From NCBI RefSeq assembly GCF_054482595.1, contig NZ_CM137008.1: 64,000 bases of DNA; one strand, written 5' to 3'. Both the position numbers and the translations under genes were made by a program. Shown one piece after another: positions 3,062 through 41,768 of this stretch (position 1 is the stretch's first letter; every line of letters starts with the position of its first letter). A model generated the notes under the pieces. The model saw only the letters and a program-made list of their open reading frames with translations. It had not been told where the DNA came from and ran no database searches.

Positions 3062-5296
3062 ATGGTTGCGGTAAGAAGTGCACATATCAATAAGGCTGGT
3101 GAATTTGATCCGGAAAAATGGATCGCAAGTCTGGGTATTACCAGCCAGAAGTCGTGTGAGTGCTTAGCCGAAACCTGGGCGTATTGTCTGCAACAGACGC
3201 AGGGGCATCCGGATGCCAGTCTGTTATTGTGGCGTGGTGTTGAGATGGTGGAGATCCTCTCGACATTAAGTATGGACATTGACACGCTGCGGGCGGCGCT
3301 GCTGTTCCCTCTGGCTGATGCCAACGTAGTCAGCGAAGATGTGCTGCGTGAGAGCGTCGGTAAGTCGGTCGTTAACCTTATTCACGGCGTGCGTGATATG
3401 GCGGCGATCCGCCAGCTGAAAGCGACGCACACTGATTCTGTTTCCTCCGAACAGGTCGATAACGTTCGCCGGATGTTATTGGCGATGGTCGATGATTTTC
3501 GCTGCGTGGTCATCAAACTGGCGGAGCGTATTGCTCATCTGCGCGAAGTAAAAGATGCGCCGGAAGATGAACGCGTACTGGCGGCAAAAGAGTGCACCAA
3601 TATCTACGCGCCGTTGGCGAACCGTCTTGGGATTGGGCAACTGAAATGGGAGCTGGAAGATTACTGCTTCCGTTATCTCCACCCGACCGAATACAAACGC
3701 ATCGCAAAACTGCTGCATGAACGCCGTCTCGACCGCGAACACTATATCGAAGAGTTTGTCGGCCATCTGCGCGCTGAGATGAAAGCTGAAGGCGTTAAAG
3801 CTGAAGTGTATGGTCGTCCGAAACACATCTACAGTATCTGGCGCAAAATGCAGAAAAAGAACCTCGCCTTCGATGAGCTGTTTGATGTGCGTGCGGTACG
3901 TATTGTCGCCGAGCGTTTACAGGATTGTTATGCCGCACTGGGGATAGTGCACACTCACTATCGCCACCTGCCGGATGAGTTTGACGATTATGTCGCTAAC
4001 CCGAAACCAAACGGTTATCAGTCTATTCATACCGTGGTTCTGGGGCCAGGTGGCAAAACCGTTGAGATCCAAATCCGCACCAAACAGATGCATGAAGATG
4101 CAGAGTTGGGTGTTGCTGCGCACTGGAAATATAAAGAGGGCGCGGCAGCTGGCGGCGCACGTTCGGGACATGAAGACCGGATTGCCTGGCTGCGTAAACT
4201 GATTGCGTGGCAGGAAGAGATGGCTGATTCCGGCGAAATGCTCGACGAAGTACGCAGCCAGGTCTTTGACGACCGGGTGTATGTCTTTACGCCGAAAGGT
4301 GATGTCGTTGATTTGCCTGCGGGATCAACGCCGCTGGACTTCGCTTACCACATCCACAGTGATGTCGGACACCGCTGCATCGGGGCAAAAATTGGCGGGC
4401 GCATTGTGCCGTTCACCTACCAGCTGCAGATGGGCGACCAGATTGAAATTATCACCCAGAAACAGCCGAACCCCAGCCGTGACTGGTTAAACCCAAACCT
4501 CGGTTACGTCACAACCAGCCGTGGGCGTTCGAAAATTCACGCCTGGTTCCGTAAACAGGACCGTGACAAAAACATTCTGGCTGGGCGGCAAATCCTTGAC
4601 GACGAGCTGGAACATCTGGGGATCAGCCTGAAAGAAGCAGAAAAACATCTGCTGCCGCGTTACAACTTTAATGATGTCGACGAGTTGCTGGCGGCGATTG
4701 GTGGCGGGGATATCCGTCTCAATCAGATGGTGAACTTCCTGCAATCGCAATTTAATAAGCCGAGTGCCGAAGAGCAGGACGCCGCCGCGCTGAAGCAACT
4801 TCAGCAAAAAAGCTACACGCCGCAAAACCGCAGTAAAGATAACGGTCGCGTGGTGGTCGAAGGTGTTGGCAACCTGATGCACCACATCGCGCGCTGCTGC
4901 CAGCCGATTCCTGGAGATGAGATTGTCGGCTTCATTACCCAGGGGCGCGGTATTTCAGTACACCGCGCCGATTGCGAACAACTGGCGGAACTGCGCTCCC
5001 ATGCGCCAGAACGCATTGTTGACGCGGTATGGGGTGAGAGCTACTCCGCCGGATATTCGCTGGTGGTCCGCGTGGTGGCTAATGATCGTAGTGGGTTGTT
5101 ACGTGATATCACGACCATTCTCGCCAACGAGAAGGTGAACGTGCTTGGCGTTGCCAGCCGTAGCGACACCAAACAGCAACTGGCGACCATCGACATGACC
5201 ATTGAGATTTACAACCTGCAAGTGCTGGGGCGCGTGCTGGGTAAACTCAACCAGGTGCCGGATGTTATCGACGCGCGTCGGTTGCACGGGAGTTAG
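3062..5296 (+). CDS. relA: GTP pyrophosphokinase RelA ((p)ppGpp synthetase I)
   Basis: 744 aa ORF starting MVAVRSAHINKAGEFDPEKW; full-length RelA. Confidence 0.95.
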   Translation: MVAVRSAHINKAGEFDPEKWIASLGITSQKSCECLAETWAYCLQQTQGHPDASLLLWRGVEMVEILSTLSMDIDTLRAALLFPLADANVVSEDVLRESVGKSVVNLIHGVRDMAAIRQLKATHTDSVSSEQVDNVRRMLLAMVDDFRCVVIKLAERIAHLREVKDAPEDERVLAAKECTNIYAPLANRLGIGQLKWELEDYCFRYLHPTEYKRIAKLLHERRLDREHYIEEFVGHLRAEMKAEGVKAEVYGRPKHIYSIWRKMQKKNLAFDELFDVRAVRIVAERLQDCYAALGIVHTHYRHLPDEFDDYVANPKPNGYQSIHTVVLGPGGKTVEIQIRTKQMHEDAELGVAAHWKYKEGAAAGGARSGHEDRIAWLRKLIAWQEEMADSGEMLDEVRSQVFDDRVYVFTPKGDVVDLPAGSTPLDFAYHIHSDVGHRCIGAKIGGRIVPFTYQLQMGDQIEIITQKQPNPSRDWLNPNLGYVTTSRGRSKIHAWFRKQDRDKNILAGRQILDDELEHLGISLKEAEKHLLPRYNFNDVDELLAAIGGGDIRLNQMVNFLQSQFNKPSAEEQDAAALKQLQQKSYTPQNRSKDNGRVVVEGVGNLMHHIARCCQPIPGDEIVGFITQGRGISVHRADCEQLAELRSHAPERIVDAVWGESYSAGYSLVVRVVANDRSGLLRDITTILANEKVNVLGVASRSDTKQQLATIDMTIEIYNLQVLGRVLGKLNQVPDVIDARRLHGS

Positions 5297-13873: not shown

Positions 13874-14545
13874 ATGCAGTACCCGATTAACGAGATGTTC
13901 CAGACCCTGCAAGGTGAGGGTTACTTTACCGGCGTCCCCGCCATTTTTATTCGTTTACAGGGATGCCCGGTTGGCTGTGCCTGGTGCGACACCAAACACA
14001 CCTGGGAAAAGCTTGAGGATCGGGAAGTCTCCCTTTTCAGCATTCTGGCGAAGACCAAAGAGAGTGATAAGTGGGGGGCGGCGAGCAGTGAAGACTTGCT
14101 GGCTGTCATTGGTCGCCAGGGATATACCGCGCGGCATGTGGTGATTACGGGTGGTGAGCCTTGCATTCATGATTTGCTGCCACTGACTGACCTGCTCGAA
14201 AAGAACGGTTTTAGCTGCCAGATCGAAACCAGTGGTACTCATGAGGTACGCTGCACACCGAATACCTGGGTTACCGTATCGCCAAAGCTGAACATGCGCG
14301 GCGGCTATGAAGTGTTGTCACAGGCACTGGAGCGAGCCAACGAAATCAAGCATCCAGTGGGGCGCGTACGTGATATTGAAGCACTGGATGAACTTTTGGC
14401 GACGCTGACCGATGATAAACCGCGAGTCATTGCACTGCAGCCGATTAGCCAAAAGGATGATGCCACACGTTTGTGCATTGAAACCTGCATTGCGCGTAAT
14501 TGGCGTTTGTCGATGCAAACCCATAAATATTTAAATATTGCCTGA
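13874..14545 (+). CDS. queE: 7-carboxy-7-deazaguanine synthase QueE (YgcF)
   Basis: 223 aa ORF MQYPINEMFQTLQGEGYFTGVPAIFIRLQGCPVGCAWCDTKH; radical-SAM Cys motif. Confidence 0.93.
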   Translation: MQYPINEMFQTLQGEGYFTGVPAIFIRLQGCPVGCAWCDTKHTWEKLEDREVSLFSILAKTKESDKWGAASSEDLLAVIGRQGYTARHVVITGGEPCIHDLLPLTDLLEKNGFSCQIETSGTHEVRCTPNTWVTVSPKLNMRGGYEVLSQALERANEIKHPVGRVRDIEALDELLATLTDDKPRVIALQPISQKDDATRLCIETCIARNWRLSMQTHKYLNIA

Positions 14546-14883
14546 TTAAACATTTATAAGCGTTATAAATGGGTGGAACCTGTAAAGACTTCTACTCATT
14601 TATATTCTTTGTCGTCTCTGAAAAACCTCCATTTTGCCCATCCTGAACTAATCATTATCATTCTCTACAAATTCTGTGGCGTTAATTTTTCGCTGGAGTG
14701 AAAATTATTGCGGTAAAGTTTGGTAGATTTTAGTTTGTATAGAGTTATTTTAAATATTTACCTTTTTAATCAATTGGTTAAGTGCTCTTTAACATAATGG
14801 ATGTGTTGTTTGTGTGATACTGTAAAGTTGGTAGATTGTGACTGGCTTAAAAAATCATTAATTAATAATAGGTTATGTTTAGA
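14546..14883 (+). promoter_or_regulatory. AT-rich CRISPR leader for array A
   Basis: AT-rich segment ending ...ctggcttaaaaaatcattaattaataataggttatgtttaga immediately before first repeat; same ttaga junction as the cas2-proximal leader. Confidence 0.75.
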
Positions 14884-15339
14884 GAGTTCCCCGCGCCAGC
14901 GGGGATAAACCGGCCTGGCGATTTCTCGTCAGGCCTTGCGGTGTGAGTTCCCCGCGCCAGCGGGGATAAACCGTCAGTAAAGCGGCGCCCACTGATATCG
15001 GATTAGAGTTCCCCGCGCCAGCGGGGATAAACCGAGGGGCAGGGAGTGACGCTGGAGCAGGCGATCGAGTTCCCCGCGCCAGCGGGGATAAACCGGGAAA
15101 TTAGGCAAATGTGAACACGGCGGCCCCGAGTTCCCCGCGCCAGCGGGGATAAACCGCCAGTATTTTGTCGTGGATTGCGGGATCACCAGAGTTCCCCGCG
15201 CCAGCGGGGATAAACCGTTGAGTTTGTTCGTAACAACGCGGGTCATCTGGAGTTCCCCGCGGCAGCGGGGATAAACCGGGTACAAAAGAGGCCCCATTCT
15301 GGCAGGGCTCAAGTTCCCCGCGCCAGTGGGGATAAACCA
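14884..15339 (+). CRISPR. Type I-E CRISPR array A: 8 repeats, 7 spacers of 32 nt
   Basis: Repeat gagttccccgcgccagcggggataaaccg at 14884, 14945, 15006, 15067, 15128, 15189, 15250 (c13g variant), 15311 (degenerate terminal); exact 61-bp period. Confidence 0.97.
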
Positions 15340-15793
15340 CCATATAACCCGTTATCTCTTTCTCAAGTTTTTATATTAGCAGTACTCGTAATAAGCAACA
15401 TATCCACGTAACACCTCATGTTCAAAATAGTTCCCCATGCCAGATAAGTTCACAATTATCGATACAAAAAATCAAATTTAATCAAAGTGTTATTTGTATA
15501 ATCCTTAAACCGTTAAGAAATTTTAATGTATTATTTTTTTTAATATTAATTAATGCCTGTTAATTTTTTCTTTAGAATAACAGTGTGTTTTTTAAGCTTG
15601 TTATTCATTGATTAAGTAATAAATCTGGAAATTTGTCTTTGTTTTGAGGCTAATGAGTGGTTTTACATAACCGCCTCTATACGCTGTTGATGAATGGTTC
15701 TTATGAATAAAGATATCCAGTTCATACTTTAAGTGTAAATTGATAAAGTGCGATTCGTATTGTCTTTTATTCTAAAGACATCGAGTGTAGTTA

Positions 15794-15932
15794 ATATTCC
15801 TTGTAAAAACAGGGATAAACCGAACTAGTTAAAGTTTTTATTATGTTCCCTGCATCAGCGGGGATAAACCGGACTTGTTATCATTTTTTAAGTTGTCGAA
15901 CTTATGTTCCCCGCGTCAGCGGGGATAACCAT
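15794..15932 (+). CRISPR. Decayed CRISPR remnant (3 degenerate repeats)
   Basis: Degenerate repeats at about 15794, 15843 (atgttccctgcatcagcggggataaaccg) and 15904 (atgttccccgcgtcagcggggataaccat); spacers 20 and 32 nt. Confidence 0.7.
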
Positions 15933-15977
15933 TCAGGTATGTTCAGGCCGGGCTGTTTCCCGCCCGGCCTTCCTCAC

Positions 15978-17456
15978 TTACGCATTCGACCAGCTCTGGA
16001 TCGAATCCGCATTTCCCAATTCCCCATGCATCACTTCATACGATTTTTTCAGAATCACATCAGTATGTTTGGTTAGGTCTTTGAAAATGCCTTTATTCAT
16101 CGCGTCGTAGCGTTTGGCATTGCTCTCAATCGGTATAAAGATATCTTTCACGCGAACCATTTTATCGACAGCCGTTGCGTAATCCGGGTATAGCCCCAGA
16201 CCTACCGCTGTATTAATCGCTGCCCCCAGGCTTGCACAACCGTTAATGGCGTTACGTCGTGCCGGAAGGTTGAACACGTCGGCAAAAATCTGCATAAACA
16301 GATCGCTGTTCGAACCGCCGCCAGTAATGATTACATGCTTCGCAAAGTGATTCATTTCATTACACATATTGTCGTAATTGTTCTTCAGCGTCAGCGCCAC
16401 GCTTTCCAGTATCGAACGATATATCCATGCGTAATCCATGCTGGAATCAAAGCCGATCATAATCCCGCGTTTGTACGGTTCCCACGGATTGGTCAGCCAG
16501 TCCAGCACCGTCATCAGCCCATTACAGCCAGGTGGCACACTAGAGGCTTTCTTGTTGAGTAAATCTTCCGGTGAAAGATCCTGCGCCCTGGCATCCTGAA
16601 TTAACGACTCGCCTAACATGTCGCGCAGCCAGCTCACCGTCCACATGCCTTTGCGAATACCGTAACCTTCATACAGCAATGTTTGCGGAATAGAAGACAT
16701 AATCGGCCAGTACGCCACCGGATCTTTCGGCAAGGCTTTGCCGTTCATCATCAATGCGATGTAAGTGCCAAGAGAAATTACCGCAGTTTCATCATCCAGT
16801 AATCCGGCCCCCAGAGCTTCTACCGGTTTATCACTGGTGGTACAAACAACCGGCAGTCCTGCCGGGAAATGTGTCGCCAGTGCGGCTTGTGGTGTGATCT
16901 GTCCAAGGACGGTGCCAGGCATTTGCACATCAAACAGCATATGACGGGGGATATTAAACTTATCCATTACCGCAGCATCTTCACTCCATGCCCAGGTCTT
17001 ATAATCCACCGGCCACTGACCAAAATAGTTGGCGATATTGTCTTTAAACTCGCCGGTTAAGCGATGCGTCAGATAACCCGAAAAAGAGGTGACATAGGCC
17101 ACGTCAGGATTAGTGTGTTCGTAGGGACGCGTTACGCGTGCATCCTGCCAGCTAATCAATGGCGCAGCTGGCGTGCCATCGGCTTTCAATAACGCACGGC
17201 AGCAACGGATGGATCCCAGACCAATACCGACAATATCTTCTTTATTCCCGGCAAACTGACTCATCAAATCGTGACCGGCAAAACATAATGATGCCCATAA
17301 ATCGTCGTCAGGATGTTCTGCGGTATCGGCATCTGGCGTGTGCATCGGCTGCAATAAACCTTTGCCTTCGCAAACCACGTTACCTTCCAGATCGTACATC
17401 ACCACTTTTGTGCTCTGACTTCCGCCATCAATCCCTATGATGTATTTCTTCGACAT
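15978..17456 (-). CDS. ygcE: FGGY-family carbohydrate kinase YgcE
   Basis: 492 aa ORF MSKKYIIGIDGGSQSTKVVMYDLEGNVV. Confidence 0.9.
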   Translation of the reverse strand: MSKKYIIGIDGGSQSTKVVMYDLEGNVVCEGKGLLQPMHTPDADTAEHPDDDLWASLCFAGHDLMSQFAGNKEDIVGIGLGSIRCCRALLKADGTPAAPLISWQDARVTRPYEHTNPDVAYVTSFSGYLTHRLTGEFKDNIANYFGQWPVDYKTWAWSEDAAVMDKFNIPRHMLFDVQMPGTVLGQITPQAALATHFPAGLPVVCTTSDKPVEALGAGLLDDETAVISLGTYIALMMNGKALPKDPVAYWPIMSSIPQTLLYEGYGIRKGMWTVSWLRDMLGESLIQDARAQDLSPEDLLNKKASSVPPGCNGLMTVLDWLTNPWEPYKRGIMIGFDSSMDYAWIYRSILESVALTLKNNYDNMCNEMNHFAKHVIITGGGSNSDLFMQIFADVFNLPARRNAINGCASLGAAINTAVGLGLYPDYATAVDKMVRVKDIFIPIESNAKRYDAMNKGIFKDLTKHTDVILKKSYEVMHGELGNADSIQSWSNA

Positions 17457-39562: not shown

Positions 39563-39577
39563 TTGAGGTGTAATAAA

Positions 39578-40780
<1,203 letters not shown>

Positions 40781-40885: not shown

Positions 40886-41768
40886 GAGTTCCCCGCGCCA
40901 GCGGGGATAAACCGCATTTAATGCAAAACTAATTGCACAATAAATAGAGTTCCCCGCGCCAGCGGGGATAAACCGGCGATAAACCTCCTCATCGCTGATA
41001 TCAATAAGAGTTCCCCGCGCCAGCGGGGATAAACCGATAAAGGCTCGGCGGCGCAAAAAATGGCACGGGAGTTCCCCGCGCCAGCGGGGATAAACCGCTC
41101 TCGTTGTTGTGCCTCAGTACCGGTGCGCGGAGTTCCCCGCGCCAGCGGGGATAAACCGCACACCGGTGCGACGGGAAACGTTCAGCGGCCGAGTTCCCCG
41201 CGCCAGCGGGGATAAACCGGGAATAGTTAATTTCGGTGATGGCTGCGTAAAGAGTTCCCCGCGGCAGCGGGGATAAACCGAGTAATGCTGCGTTGAGATG
41301 ACCAGGCGGGCTGAGTTCCCCGCGGCAGCGGGGATAAACCGTTGACGCCAGCGGCGACCCGCGCCACGGGCTTGAGTTCCCCGCGCCAGCGGGGATAAAC
41401 CGTAGCCAGACGTACTCGCAATCTGTCGGCGGTCGAGTTCCCCGCGCCAGCGGGGATAAACCACCAGTTCTCCGTATTCTGTGGTTATCGTTGCTGAGTT
41501 CCCCGCGCCAGCGGGGATAAACCGGGAGTTCAGACATAGGTGGAATGATGGACTACGAGTTCCCCGCGTTAGCGGGGATAAACCGCCCGGTAGCCAGGTT
41601 TGCAACGCCTGAACCGAGAGTTCCCCGCGCCAGCAGGGATAAACCGGCAACGACGGTGAGATTTCACGCCTGACGCTGGTGTTCCCCGCGCCAGCGGGGA
41701 TAAACCGGGCGCACTGGATGCGATGATGGATATCACTGAGAATTCCCCGCCCCTGCGGTAGAACACCC
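40886..41768 (+). CRISPR. Type I-E CRISPR array B: 15 repeats, 14 spacers of 32 nt
   Basis: Repeats every 61 bp from 40886 to 41740; variants at repeats 7-8 (c13g), 10 (3' a), 12 (cc to tt), 13 (g to a), 14 (a2t); terminal repeat 41740-41768 degenerate. Confidence 0.97.

Follow-up and report, generated by a model that had tools for sequence, protein, structure and literature searches.

CRISPR2.2, a small array of the Escherichia coli CRISPR-II locus, is probably under selective constraint

Identity and layout of the locus

The DNA examined here is a 64,000-nucleotide (nt) stretch of contig NZ_CM137008.1 from the RefSeq assembly GCF_054482595.1 (the window, to which all coordinates refer), a segment of an Escherichia coli chromosome whose layout matches the CRISPR-II and CRISPR-I loci of that species (CRISPR, short palindromic repeats that are clustered and regularly interspaced). 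Between queE and the convergent gene ygcE lie the type I-E array CRISPR2.3, an AT-rich tract, and three divergent repeats (R1, R2, and R3) enclosing two spacers (S1 and S2; Table 1). A first-pass annotation, made from the letters alone, had described the latter as a decayed third array with its own eroded leader. By position and sequence, the feature is already known: it is CRISPR2.2 together with the 0.45-kb separator of the E. coli CRISPR-II locus. The element itself is E. coli CRISPR anatomy of textbook level, and only its measured constraint merits follow-up, since near-invariance amid freely varying flanks suggests that the remnant is kept for a purpose.

CRISPR2.2 can be traced to Diez-Villasenor et al. 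(2010), as cited in PMC3903273, PMC4489801, PMC3737337, and PMC10910852. The published element has the same position and orientation, three repeats, two invariable spacers, and a 0.5-kb AT-rich gap to CRISPR2.3; the merged form "CRISPR2.2-3", which is published as occasional, is also observed here, in B2-type strains. The identical 139 nt occupy this place between queE and ygcE in K-12 and in thousands of further genomes. Nothing is annotated at CRISPR2.2 in the MG1655 record or by the RefSeq pipeline, whose CRISPR annotation at the locus covers CRISPR2.3 alone, and one CRISPRCasFinder survey failed to call it. This annotation gap explains why the locus looks new from raw sequence. In their accessible parts, the published descriptions do not state the quantitative contrast in constraint, the ghost repeats that extend CRISPR2.3 into the gap, the likeness of S1 to S2, or the empty site outside Escherichia; the original 2010 account may hold some of these points.

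Table 1. Features between queE and ygcE, with their positions in the window
Feature	Coordinates	Strand	Remarks
queE (ygcF)	13874-14545	+	Open reading frame (ORF), NCBIfam support, RefSeq name
Leader 2.3, AT-rich, of the active CRISPR2.3 array	14546-14883	+	Between queE stop and first repeat
CRISPR2.3 ("array A"), type I-E	14884-15339	+	8 repeats and 7 spacers, 61-nt period
Decayed CRISPR2.3 tail	15340-15455	+	33 nt spacer-like, ghost repeat 15373-15401, 26 nt spacer-like, ghost repeat 15428-15453
AT-rich core, 17-33% GC	15456-15700	.	Neutral evolution; inside published promoter island
Conserved block upstream of R1	15701-15793	+	Candidate promoter or leader of the mini-array
R1	15794-15822	+	ATATTCCTTGTAAAAACAGGGATAAACCG; variant stem CCTTGT/ACAGGG; 3' GGGATAAACCG intact
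S1, 20-nt spacer	15823-15842	+	
R2	15843-15871	+	ATGTTCCCTGCATCAGCGGGGATAAACCG; 3 mismatches to 27-nt consensus core
S2, 32-nt invariant spacer	15872-15903	+	
R3, terminal repeat	15904-15932	+	ATGTTCCCCGCGTCAGCGGGGATAACCAT; degenerate 3' end ATAACCAT
GC-rich inverted repeat between R3 and ygcE stop	15945-15970	.	Presumed ygcE terminator; folds as 9-bp stem
ygcE, FGGY-family sugar kinase	15978-17456	-	ORF, NCBIfam FGGY, RefSeq; convergent with the arrays

Repeats and spacers of CRISPR2.2

CRISPR2.2 contains three direct repeats related to the type I-E consensus GAGTTCCCCGCGCCAGCGGGGATAAACCG, where two of about 29 nt would suffice to define an array. A 27-nt repeat core finds 23 matches in the window at up to three mismatches, against 0.00 expected. 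The first-pass annotation placed the repeats at about 15794, 15843, and 15904, with spacers of 20 and 32 nt, which proves exact to the base, and its distance of 45 nt between the last repeat and the ygcE stop agrees with R3 ending at 15932 and the stop end of the minus-strand gene ygcE lying at 15978. The repeats deviate from the consensus at 3-11 positions; over a 35-nt register, identity is 71% and 77% for R2 and R3, and 74% for R1 to R2. R2 and R3 are spaced by 61 nt with a 32-nt spacer, and R1 and R2 by 49 nt with a 20-nt spacer. S1 is 12 nt shorter than S2 and agrees with the beginning of S2 in 12 of 17 positions; duplication is thus a more probable origin of the R-S1 unit than acquisition.

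Several minor features accompany these repeats. At repeat position 2, R2 and R3 carry a T (xTGTTCC), as does the published "CRISPR-T" variant, while both active arrays of the window strain (14884-15339 and 40886-41709) are of the "A" variant (GAGTTCC). Position 13 of R2 and R3 is T, as in the canonical repeats of Escherichia albertii and of a divergent lineage represented by genome L008 (see below). The 3' half of S2 (15890-15903) is self-complementary (AAGTT-GTCG-AACTT), and a small hairpin is predicted there between those of R2 and R3. An origin of R1 as the repeat of a foreign organism was considered and rejected: a metagenome scan with the R1 stem returned 90 contigs with one match each, all from the Escherichia locus. 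A 9-nt inverted repeat flanking the block (15691-15699 and 15927-15935) was also discarded, being allele-specific and mismatched in most strains.

Sequence conservation

Ten diverse E. coli strains were aligned with L008, which is filed as E. coli, and nucleotide diversity (pi) within E. coli as well as divergence to L008 was calculated for each part of the interval (Table 2). L008 and the metagenome contig L141 belong to a divergent lineage whose flanks are 91-95% identical to the window.

Table 2. Diversity within E. coli and divergence to L008 across the interval and in ygcE
Region	pi	Divergence to L008
ygcE 4-fold sites	0.13	0.28
Decayed tail, 15340-15455	0.05	0.31
AT core, 15456-15639	0.07	0.27
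Upstream of R1, 15640-15793	0.010	0.15
CRISPR2.2, 15794-15932	0.005	0.037
45 nt between ygcE stop and R3, terminator hairpin included	0.045	0.16
ygcE codon positions 1+2	0.008	0.016

Among the ten strains, CRISPR2.2 has 2 segregating sites in 139 nt, versus 73 in 210 ygcE 4-fold sites (Fisher p = 2e-16). Sliding windows reveal a diversity valley at 15701-15910 (~210 nt), about ten times lower than either flank, which spans 93 nt upstream of R1, R1, S1, R2, S2, and the start of the R3 hairpin. Within the upstream block (15701-15793), 30-nt windows give a pi of 0.000-0.012 in 11 strains, and pi does not exceed 0.007 in 58 metagenome-augmented sequences. The valley is reproduced in 57 independent metagenome contigs, which were ascertained on 21 bases of R1, those positions being excluded. 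In this sample, the density of singletons in the block is similar to that in the flank (0.058 vs 0.039 per nt, p = 0.39), whereas variants seen at least twice are 8-fold rarer (3/189 vs 48/361 sites, p = 8e-7). Singletons at flank density combined with a shortage of common variants point to purifying selection and not to a low mutation rate.

The same picture is obtained from complete genomes. S2 is identical at 32/32 positions in 4048 of the 4062 E. coli genomes carrying it, with no second genomic site, and S1 shows no substitutions in the ten-strain or the metagenome sample. Identity of 99% or more over the 139 nt of CRISPR2.2 is reached by 3868 of 4156 genomes but, over the adjoining 300 nt, by only 15 of 4161. 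The block is less diverse than the active leader 2.3 (pi 0.026), and the presumed remnant is more conserved than cas6e itself. In the L008/L141 lineage, R1 is identical at 29/29 positions, across 0.28 divergence per neutral site, and S2 at 30/32; between L008 and L141, 18 differences fall in the 489 positions upstream of R1 and none in the 90 of R1-S2-R3. Decay, as proposed in the first-pass annotation, is the wrong description of repeats, spacers, and about 90 upstream nt that rank among the least variable bases of the region (pi 0.005). The comparisons make it likely that the ~210 nt at 15701-15910 are under selective constraint of some kind. Spacer content is invariant among strains, unit deletions being the only variants, and no spacer turnover is seen.

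Arrays commonly decay at the end distal to the leader, and modified terminal repeats are reported in 100% of cases at CRISPR2 (PMC2886076, Table 1). The last CRISPR2.3 repeat (R8), the ghost repeats at 15373 and 15428, and the 3' end of R3 fit this usual erosion. R1, R2, S1, and S2 lie beyond the eroded zone, yet they are better conserved than the active leader, which amounts to the opposite gradient. Touchon and Rocha had already wondered if distal spacers of the highest conservation might be "more strongly selected for" (PMC2886076); the contrast with flanking DNA makes this question testable at CRISPR2.2.

Repeat hairpins and strand specificity

R1, R2, R3, and the canonical repeat share an identical predicted fold on the + strand, a Cas6e-type hairpin with a 7-bp stem and a 4-nt loop (-7.9, -12.1, -15.1, and -15.1 kcal/mol, respectively). 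The R1 stem contains two double-sided compensations (C-G to U-A, pairs 9-18 and 11-16) and one G-U pair, and the R2 stem contains one G-U, pairing only on the + strand. Across eight repeat variants, all 56 pair cells are standard pairs, with 2 double-sided compensations and 3 G-U changes. The G-U pairs become A-C mismatches on the minus strand, where the R1 and R2 hairpins lose significance: R1 falls from -7.9 kcal/mol (z = -2.9) on the + strand to -4.4 kcal/mol (z = -0.7), and R2 has a minus-strand z of -1.3. The whole block folds much better than shuffled sequences on both strands (z = -6.6 and -6.0).

Sequence beyond the stems is retained selectively. R1 and R2 keep the exact GGGATAAACCG, which comprises the Cas6e cut site and the 8-nt 5' handle ATAAACCG. 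R3 keeps the hairpin only and has a degenerate tail; a terminal repeat need supply only the 3' hairpin. Handle and cut site in R1 and R2, with the hairpin alone in R3, match the set of features needed to release CRISPR RNAs (crRNAs). From the retention of 7-bp Cas6e-type hairpins by all three repeats on the + strand only, we infer that the constraint acts on RNA read in the CRISPR-sense (+) direction.

The upstream block and the question of a leader

The proposal of an own eroded leader for CRISPR2.2 finds no support. In local alignments, the tract resembles leaders 2.3 and 2.1 no better than shuffled sequences do (103/300 and 278/300, respectively), but this is a weak test: the control comparison of leader 2.3 with leader 2.1 also fails, so the low-powered alignment is uninformative rather than negative. 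A simple scan gave no consensus sigma-70 promoter on the + strand facing R1, and the junction upstream of R1 reads ...GTGTAGTTA/A, not ...TTTAGA/G as in I-E leaders (slash at the junction). The tract does occupy the position of a leader, as it is AT-rich (28% GC), non-coding, and directly upstream of R1 in array orientation. Leaders are named in the literature only for CRISPR2.1 and CRISPR2.3, and the AT-rich DNA has been published as something that "splits" the array.

The conserved block at 15701-15793 is a possible promoter or leader for the mini-array. Two elements within it might be protein-binding sites or RNA structures: the palindrome TATGAA-N13-TTCATA (15702-15726), located within the most conserved 30 nt upstream of R1, and the hairpin GTCTTT(T)/AAAGAC (6-7 bp, 15762-15779), situated 15 nt before R1.

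The AT-rich tract between the arrays

The AT-rich sequence of about 450 bp noted after array A corresponds to 15340-15793 (454 nt, 28.4% GC, down to 17% in 100-nt windows), and 4123 of 5426 complete E. coli genomes contain it with a coverage of at least 80%. It has two parts, a decayed tail of CRISPR2.3 (15340-15455) and an AT-rich core. Within the tail, the weak repeat-like fragment suspected near 15428 is genuine: GTTCCCCATGCCAG at 15430-15443 matches the 5' half of the repeat at 12/14 positions, for which 0.55 matches are expected in the whole window on both strands and only two are found outside the arrays. The ghost repeat at 15373-15401 is recognizable only through its better-kept L008/L141 orthologue TCGTTCCCTGTATCAGCAATAAATAACAT, which sits exactly 61 nt beyond the last good repeat; the 15428 fragment follows one unit later. 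The tail evolves neutrally (pi 0.05, divergence to L008 0.31).

Extension of this interpretation to the whole gap was rejected, as a transition-tolerant repeat profile run on the AT core of the window and of L008 gave scores within those of shuffled sequences. The core has no ORFs and no paralogue elsewhere in the window. Regarding a foreign source, no phage match was found, and the plasmid matches were only mis-filed E. coli chromosomes. The core of the window strain represents a rare haplotype shared with MS14385, only 15 of 4161 genomes being at least 99% identical. In strain OkiPb01688 (NZ_AP042535.1, 3001-3815), an IS1 element is inserted 62 nt into the tract, and the remainder through ygcE and several further genes is deleted.

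The tract overlaps promoter island 2901670_347 (ygcE/queE), one of 78 such islands in K-12, all of which are reported to bind RNA polymerase (Panyukov & Ozoline 2013, PMC3661553). According to the same source, this island is AT-rich, is bound by H-NS in all cited chromatin immunoprecipitation studies, and yields little transcript from many weak start points; it is read as a silenced regulatory region of foreign genes. Our conversion of its coordinates from U00096.2 through the MG1655 record, checked against the neighboring queE/ygcG island, places it at about 15359-15705 of the window. PMC3661553 draws no connection between the island and CRISPR2.2.

Age and history of the locus

The ygcE neighborhood was compared using one genome per species. 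In Citrobacter, Enterobacter, Cedecea, Buttiauxella, Klebsiella spallanzanii, and others, about 25 Enterobacteriaceae genomes outside Escherichia, the queE-ygcE site is without CRISPR and the two convergent genes are 40-110 nt apart. The inverted repeat at 15945-15970 is present even in genera without CRISPR at this site. Within Escherichia, E. albertii has leader 2.3 and three repeats with no AT tract, and E. whittamii has a truncated leader and a single repeat. The ygcE-adjoining repeat ends with ...GCGTCAGCGGGGATAACCAT, as R3 does, in E. albertii, E. whittamii, and B2-type E. coli (e.g., L003); R3 is also present in the L008/L141 lineage, while in Escherichia sp. MOD1-EC7003 its position holds only the truncated copy GGGGGGATAACCAT. 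Since R3 is common to the CRISPR-carrying Escherichia lineages, it is, on this comparison, the repeat that originally terminated the array acquired at the queE-ygcE site in Escherichia, and CRISPR2.2 is the oldest, leader-distal end.

Comparison of the interval across strains thus confirms the array ancestry surmised in the first-pass annotation, for the three I-E repeats and for part of the tract (15340-15455). The array is old, with R3 as the terminal repeat across CRISPR-carrying Escherichia and an empty site in other genera, and it does record the history of the locus in that CRISPR2.2 is the oldest end of the Escherichia CRISPR-II array.

Two derived forms clarify the later steps. In the merged arrays of B2-type strains, a hybrid repeat joins the canonical 5' GAG to an R3-type 3' half, which is the expected product of a deletion between repeats. 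The L008/L141 lineage possesses the tract and a two-repeat CRISPR2.2 (R1-S2-R3) in which S1 is absent; the split form is therefore older than E. coli proper, which makes the B2 form a secondary loss.

Two isolates show further arrangements. L036, a genome labeled E. coli (SCPM-O-B-8794) with ~91% identity in ygcE, has an unrelated queE-ygcE spacer of 110 nt without CRISPR (NZ_JAATUR010000008.1, 3860-3968, the window orientation being the reverse complement of the record); it may be an Escherichia lineage that either never gained CRISPR-II or lost it cleanly. In LP50-1 (NZ_CP101858.1, 2139-3095), ygcE is truncated and joined to queD by a ~12-kb deletion that leaves CRISPR2.2 intact at its edge; a similar deletion has been described for O156:H8 isolates (PMC5359238).

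Possible function of CRISPR2.2

The favored reading, for which we consider the case evenly poised, is that CRISPR2.2 is a selectively retained mini-array that could still be processed into crRNA. The crRNA mechanism itself is more tentative. The mini-array would be transcribed toward ygcE, from the conserved upstream block or by read-through, and Cas6e would cut the transcript to yield a standard 61-nt crRNA with S2 (ATAAACCG-S2-ATGTTCCCCGCGTCAGCGGGG) and, in E. coli proper, a second, shorter (49-nt) crRNA with S1. These crRNAs would serve a putative conserved target.

Conserved orphan or cas-distal arrays with non-immune roles include the Listeria RliB-CRISPR, and self-regulatory crRNAs occur in Pseudomonas or Francisella. 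Like orphan arrays such as RliB-CRISPR, CRISPR2.2 is small, lacks adjacent cas genes, and has a species-fixed content; the likeness is an analogy for a domesticated array only. Such a domesticated mini-array is conceivable, though we would not expect it: ~210 nt might have been held by purifying selection since before the split of E. coli and its sister lineage, with one or more invariant crRNAs, or a hairpin RNA, acting in a conserved host function (e.g., control of an endogenous or ubiquitous target). The fixed stretch would then hold one or two invariant guides and three hairpins competent for Cas6e, together with a proximal control region.

What the E. coli I-E system, silenced by H-NS, does in nature has long been a puzzle, and its arrays show little evidence of recent immunity. 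If CRISPR2.2 were domesticated, the "silent" system would have a species-wide, non-adaptive role. The S2 guide, invariant, structurally competent, and common to about 75% of E. coli, offers a deletable handle on that role; if its deletion changed nothing, the locus would be an example of strong non-coding constraint without an assigned function.

Several observations weigh against retention as a processable array. S1 looks like a diverged duplicate of S2 and not like an acquired spacer. The conservation of R1 in the metagenome sample is partly a matter of ascertainment, 21 of its bases having been fixed in the search pattern. One R2 stem pair is broken by a common variant (15851 T>A). Reduced forms are tolerated: some O157 carry the single unit R1-S1-R3, the L008 lineage carries the single unit R1-S2-R3, and B2-type strains have the whole locus deleted. 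S2 occurs in 4062 genomes and cas6e in 1182 + 2657, so that at least 223 genomes have S2 but lack cas6e altogether. Because H-NS silences the I-E cas operon in E. coli, any Cas-dependent selection would be confined to rare conditions. The + strand scan gave no consensus promoter for R1, and the region has no entry in the portion of the SMRT-Cappable-seq operon tables that was examined.

Nor did searches of phage, plasmid, IMG/VR, and E. coli genome collections and of the window yield a protospacer for either spacer, so the search for phage or plasmid sources that the first-pass annotation had suggested gave no convincing one. In phages and plasmids, matches were at chance level (E >= 0.02), and the sole full matches were E. 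coli chromosomes. In IMG/VR, where S2 was searched with every sixth base wild-carded, matches comprised the CRISPR-II locus itself and two isolated 20-mers; the window was searched by seed-plus-partial match. Three PLSDB "plasmids" (NZ_OL790696.1, NZ_CP141089.1, and NZ_CP134663.1) are in fact E. coli chromosomes of 4.8-4.9 Mb, and the IMG/VR "viral" contig IMGVR_UViG_2531839665_000019 (L095) contains the chromosomal CRISPR-II locus. These entries give rise to false "protospacer" matches for both spacers.

Alternative explanations

The main competitor of the processable array, which we consider unlikely but worth serious attention, is a Cas-independent cis element, i.e., a boundary, terminator, or insulator where CRISPR2.3 and ygcE converge, or a cluster of protein sites beside an H-NS-silenced island, for which the hairpins would have been exapted. 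The block lies exactly between the convergent units, and the adjoining AT core belongs to the published island that binds RNA polymerase and H-NS (PMC3661553). A protein site would be consistent with the palindrome among the 30 upstream nt of highest conservation, and the block is conserved in genomes without cas6e and folds significantly on both strands. However, terminator or insulator roles seldom demand that every base of two spacers be invariant, and no terminator-like site is predicted in the block. Furthermore, the G-U pairs make the hairpins specific to the crRNA-sense strand, and this model offers no reason why R1 and R2, unlike R3, have the exact 8-nt handle.

An improbable alternative is that of a neutral relic, in which CRISPR2.2 is dead and eroding together with an eroded leader, and its sameness among strains reflects inertia or hitch-hiking. 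Repeats 3-11 positions off the consensus, the degenerate 3' end of R3, the lack of spacer turnover, the failure to find a target in the searched collections or a + strand consensus promoter, the dispensability of the locus in B2-type strains, and its neglect by standard annotation all agree with this view. It is difficult to reconcile with diversity about ten times below both flanks and divergence to the outgroup lineage about seven times lower, with singletons that arise at the flank rate yet do not rise in frequency, with an R1 variant sequence unchanged at 29/29 positions across 0.28 neutral divergence, and with compensated stem changes. Pure neutral decay is disfavored as the reading least compatible with the data.

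A minus-strand product, either a ygcE 3' untranslated region or a small RNA derived from it, or a small protein, is very improbable: the block does lie directly downstream of the ygcE stop on that strand, with a promoter-like site at 15739-15710 and short ORFs on both strands (including those with ATG starts at R2 and R3, 77 and 68 aa), but the 45-nt gap from the ygcE stop to R3 shows weaker conservation than the block (Table 2), the minus strand gives mismatched hairpins for R1 and R2, Rfam gave nothing above noise, and the ORFs are not kept, as a 61-nt O157 deletion and a 1-nt L008 indel shift the frame and a 20-aa minus-strand ORF is truncated in L008. Coding potential of the tract and block was rejected more generally, all six frames being full of stops and the short ORFs not conserved.

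Active arrays and cas genes in the window

Conservation of leader 2.3, with a pi of 0.026 in 61 sequences, is still 93-95% in E. albertii and the L008 lineage, and the repeat-proximal 40 nt of this leader are invariant. R8 (15311-15339), the last repeat of CRISPR2.3, carries two changes, as it begins with AAG and its C17>T substitution gives a G-U in the stem; elsewhere, the terminal CRISPR2.3 repeat starts with GAG in 10/10 other compared strains and has C at position 17 in 8/10.

A second I-E array, accompanied by the cas operon, is located ~25 kb away at 40886-41709, and full-length Cas6e and Cascade ORFs are encoded in the window. While cas3, cse1, cse2, cas7, cas5, cas6e, and cas2 look full length, cas1e (39563-40494) appears to be frameshifted, being split between two frames into ORFs of 162 aa (39563-40051) and 148 aa (40048-40494) that overlap. 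With a split cas1e and the other cas genes intact, the window strain may be able to process crRNA yet perhaps not acquire spacers. In an O157:H7 genome (NZ_CP038309.1, 3881-4033), a Hok/Gef-family toxin gene lies between cysH and cas3, directly upstream of the I-E cas operon.

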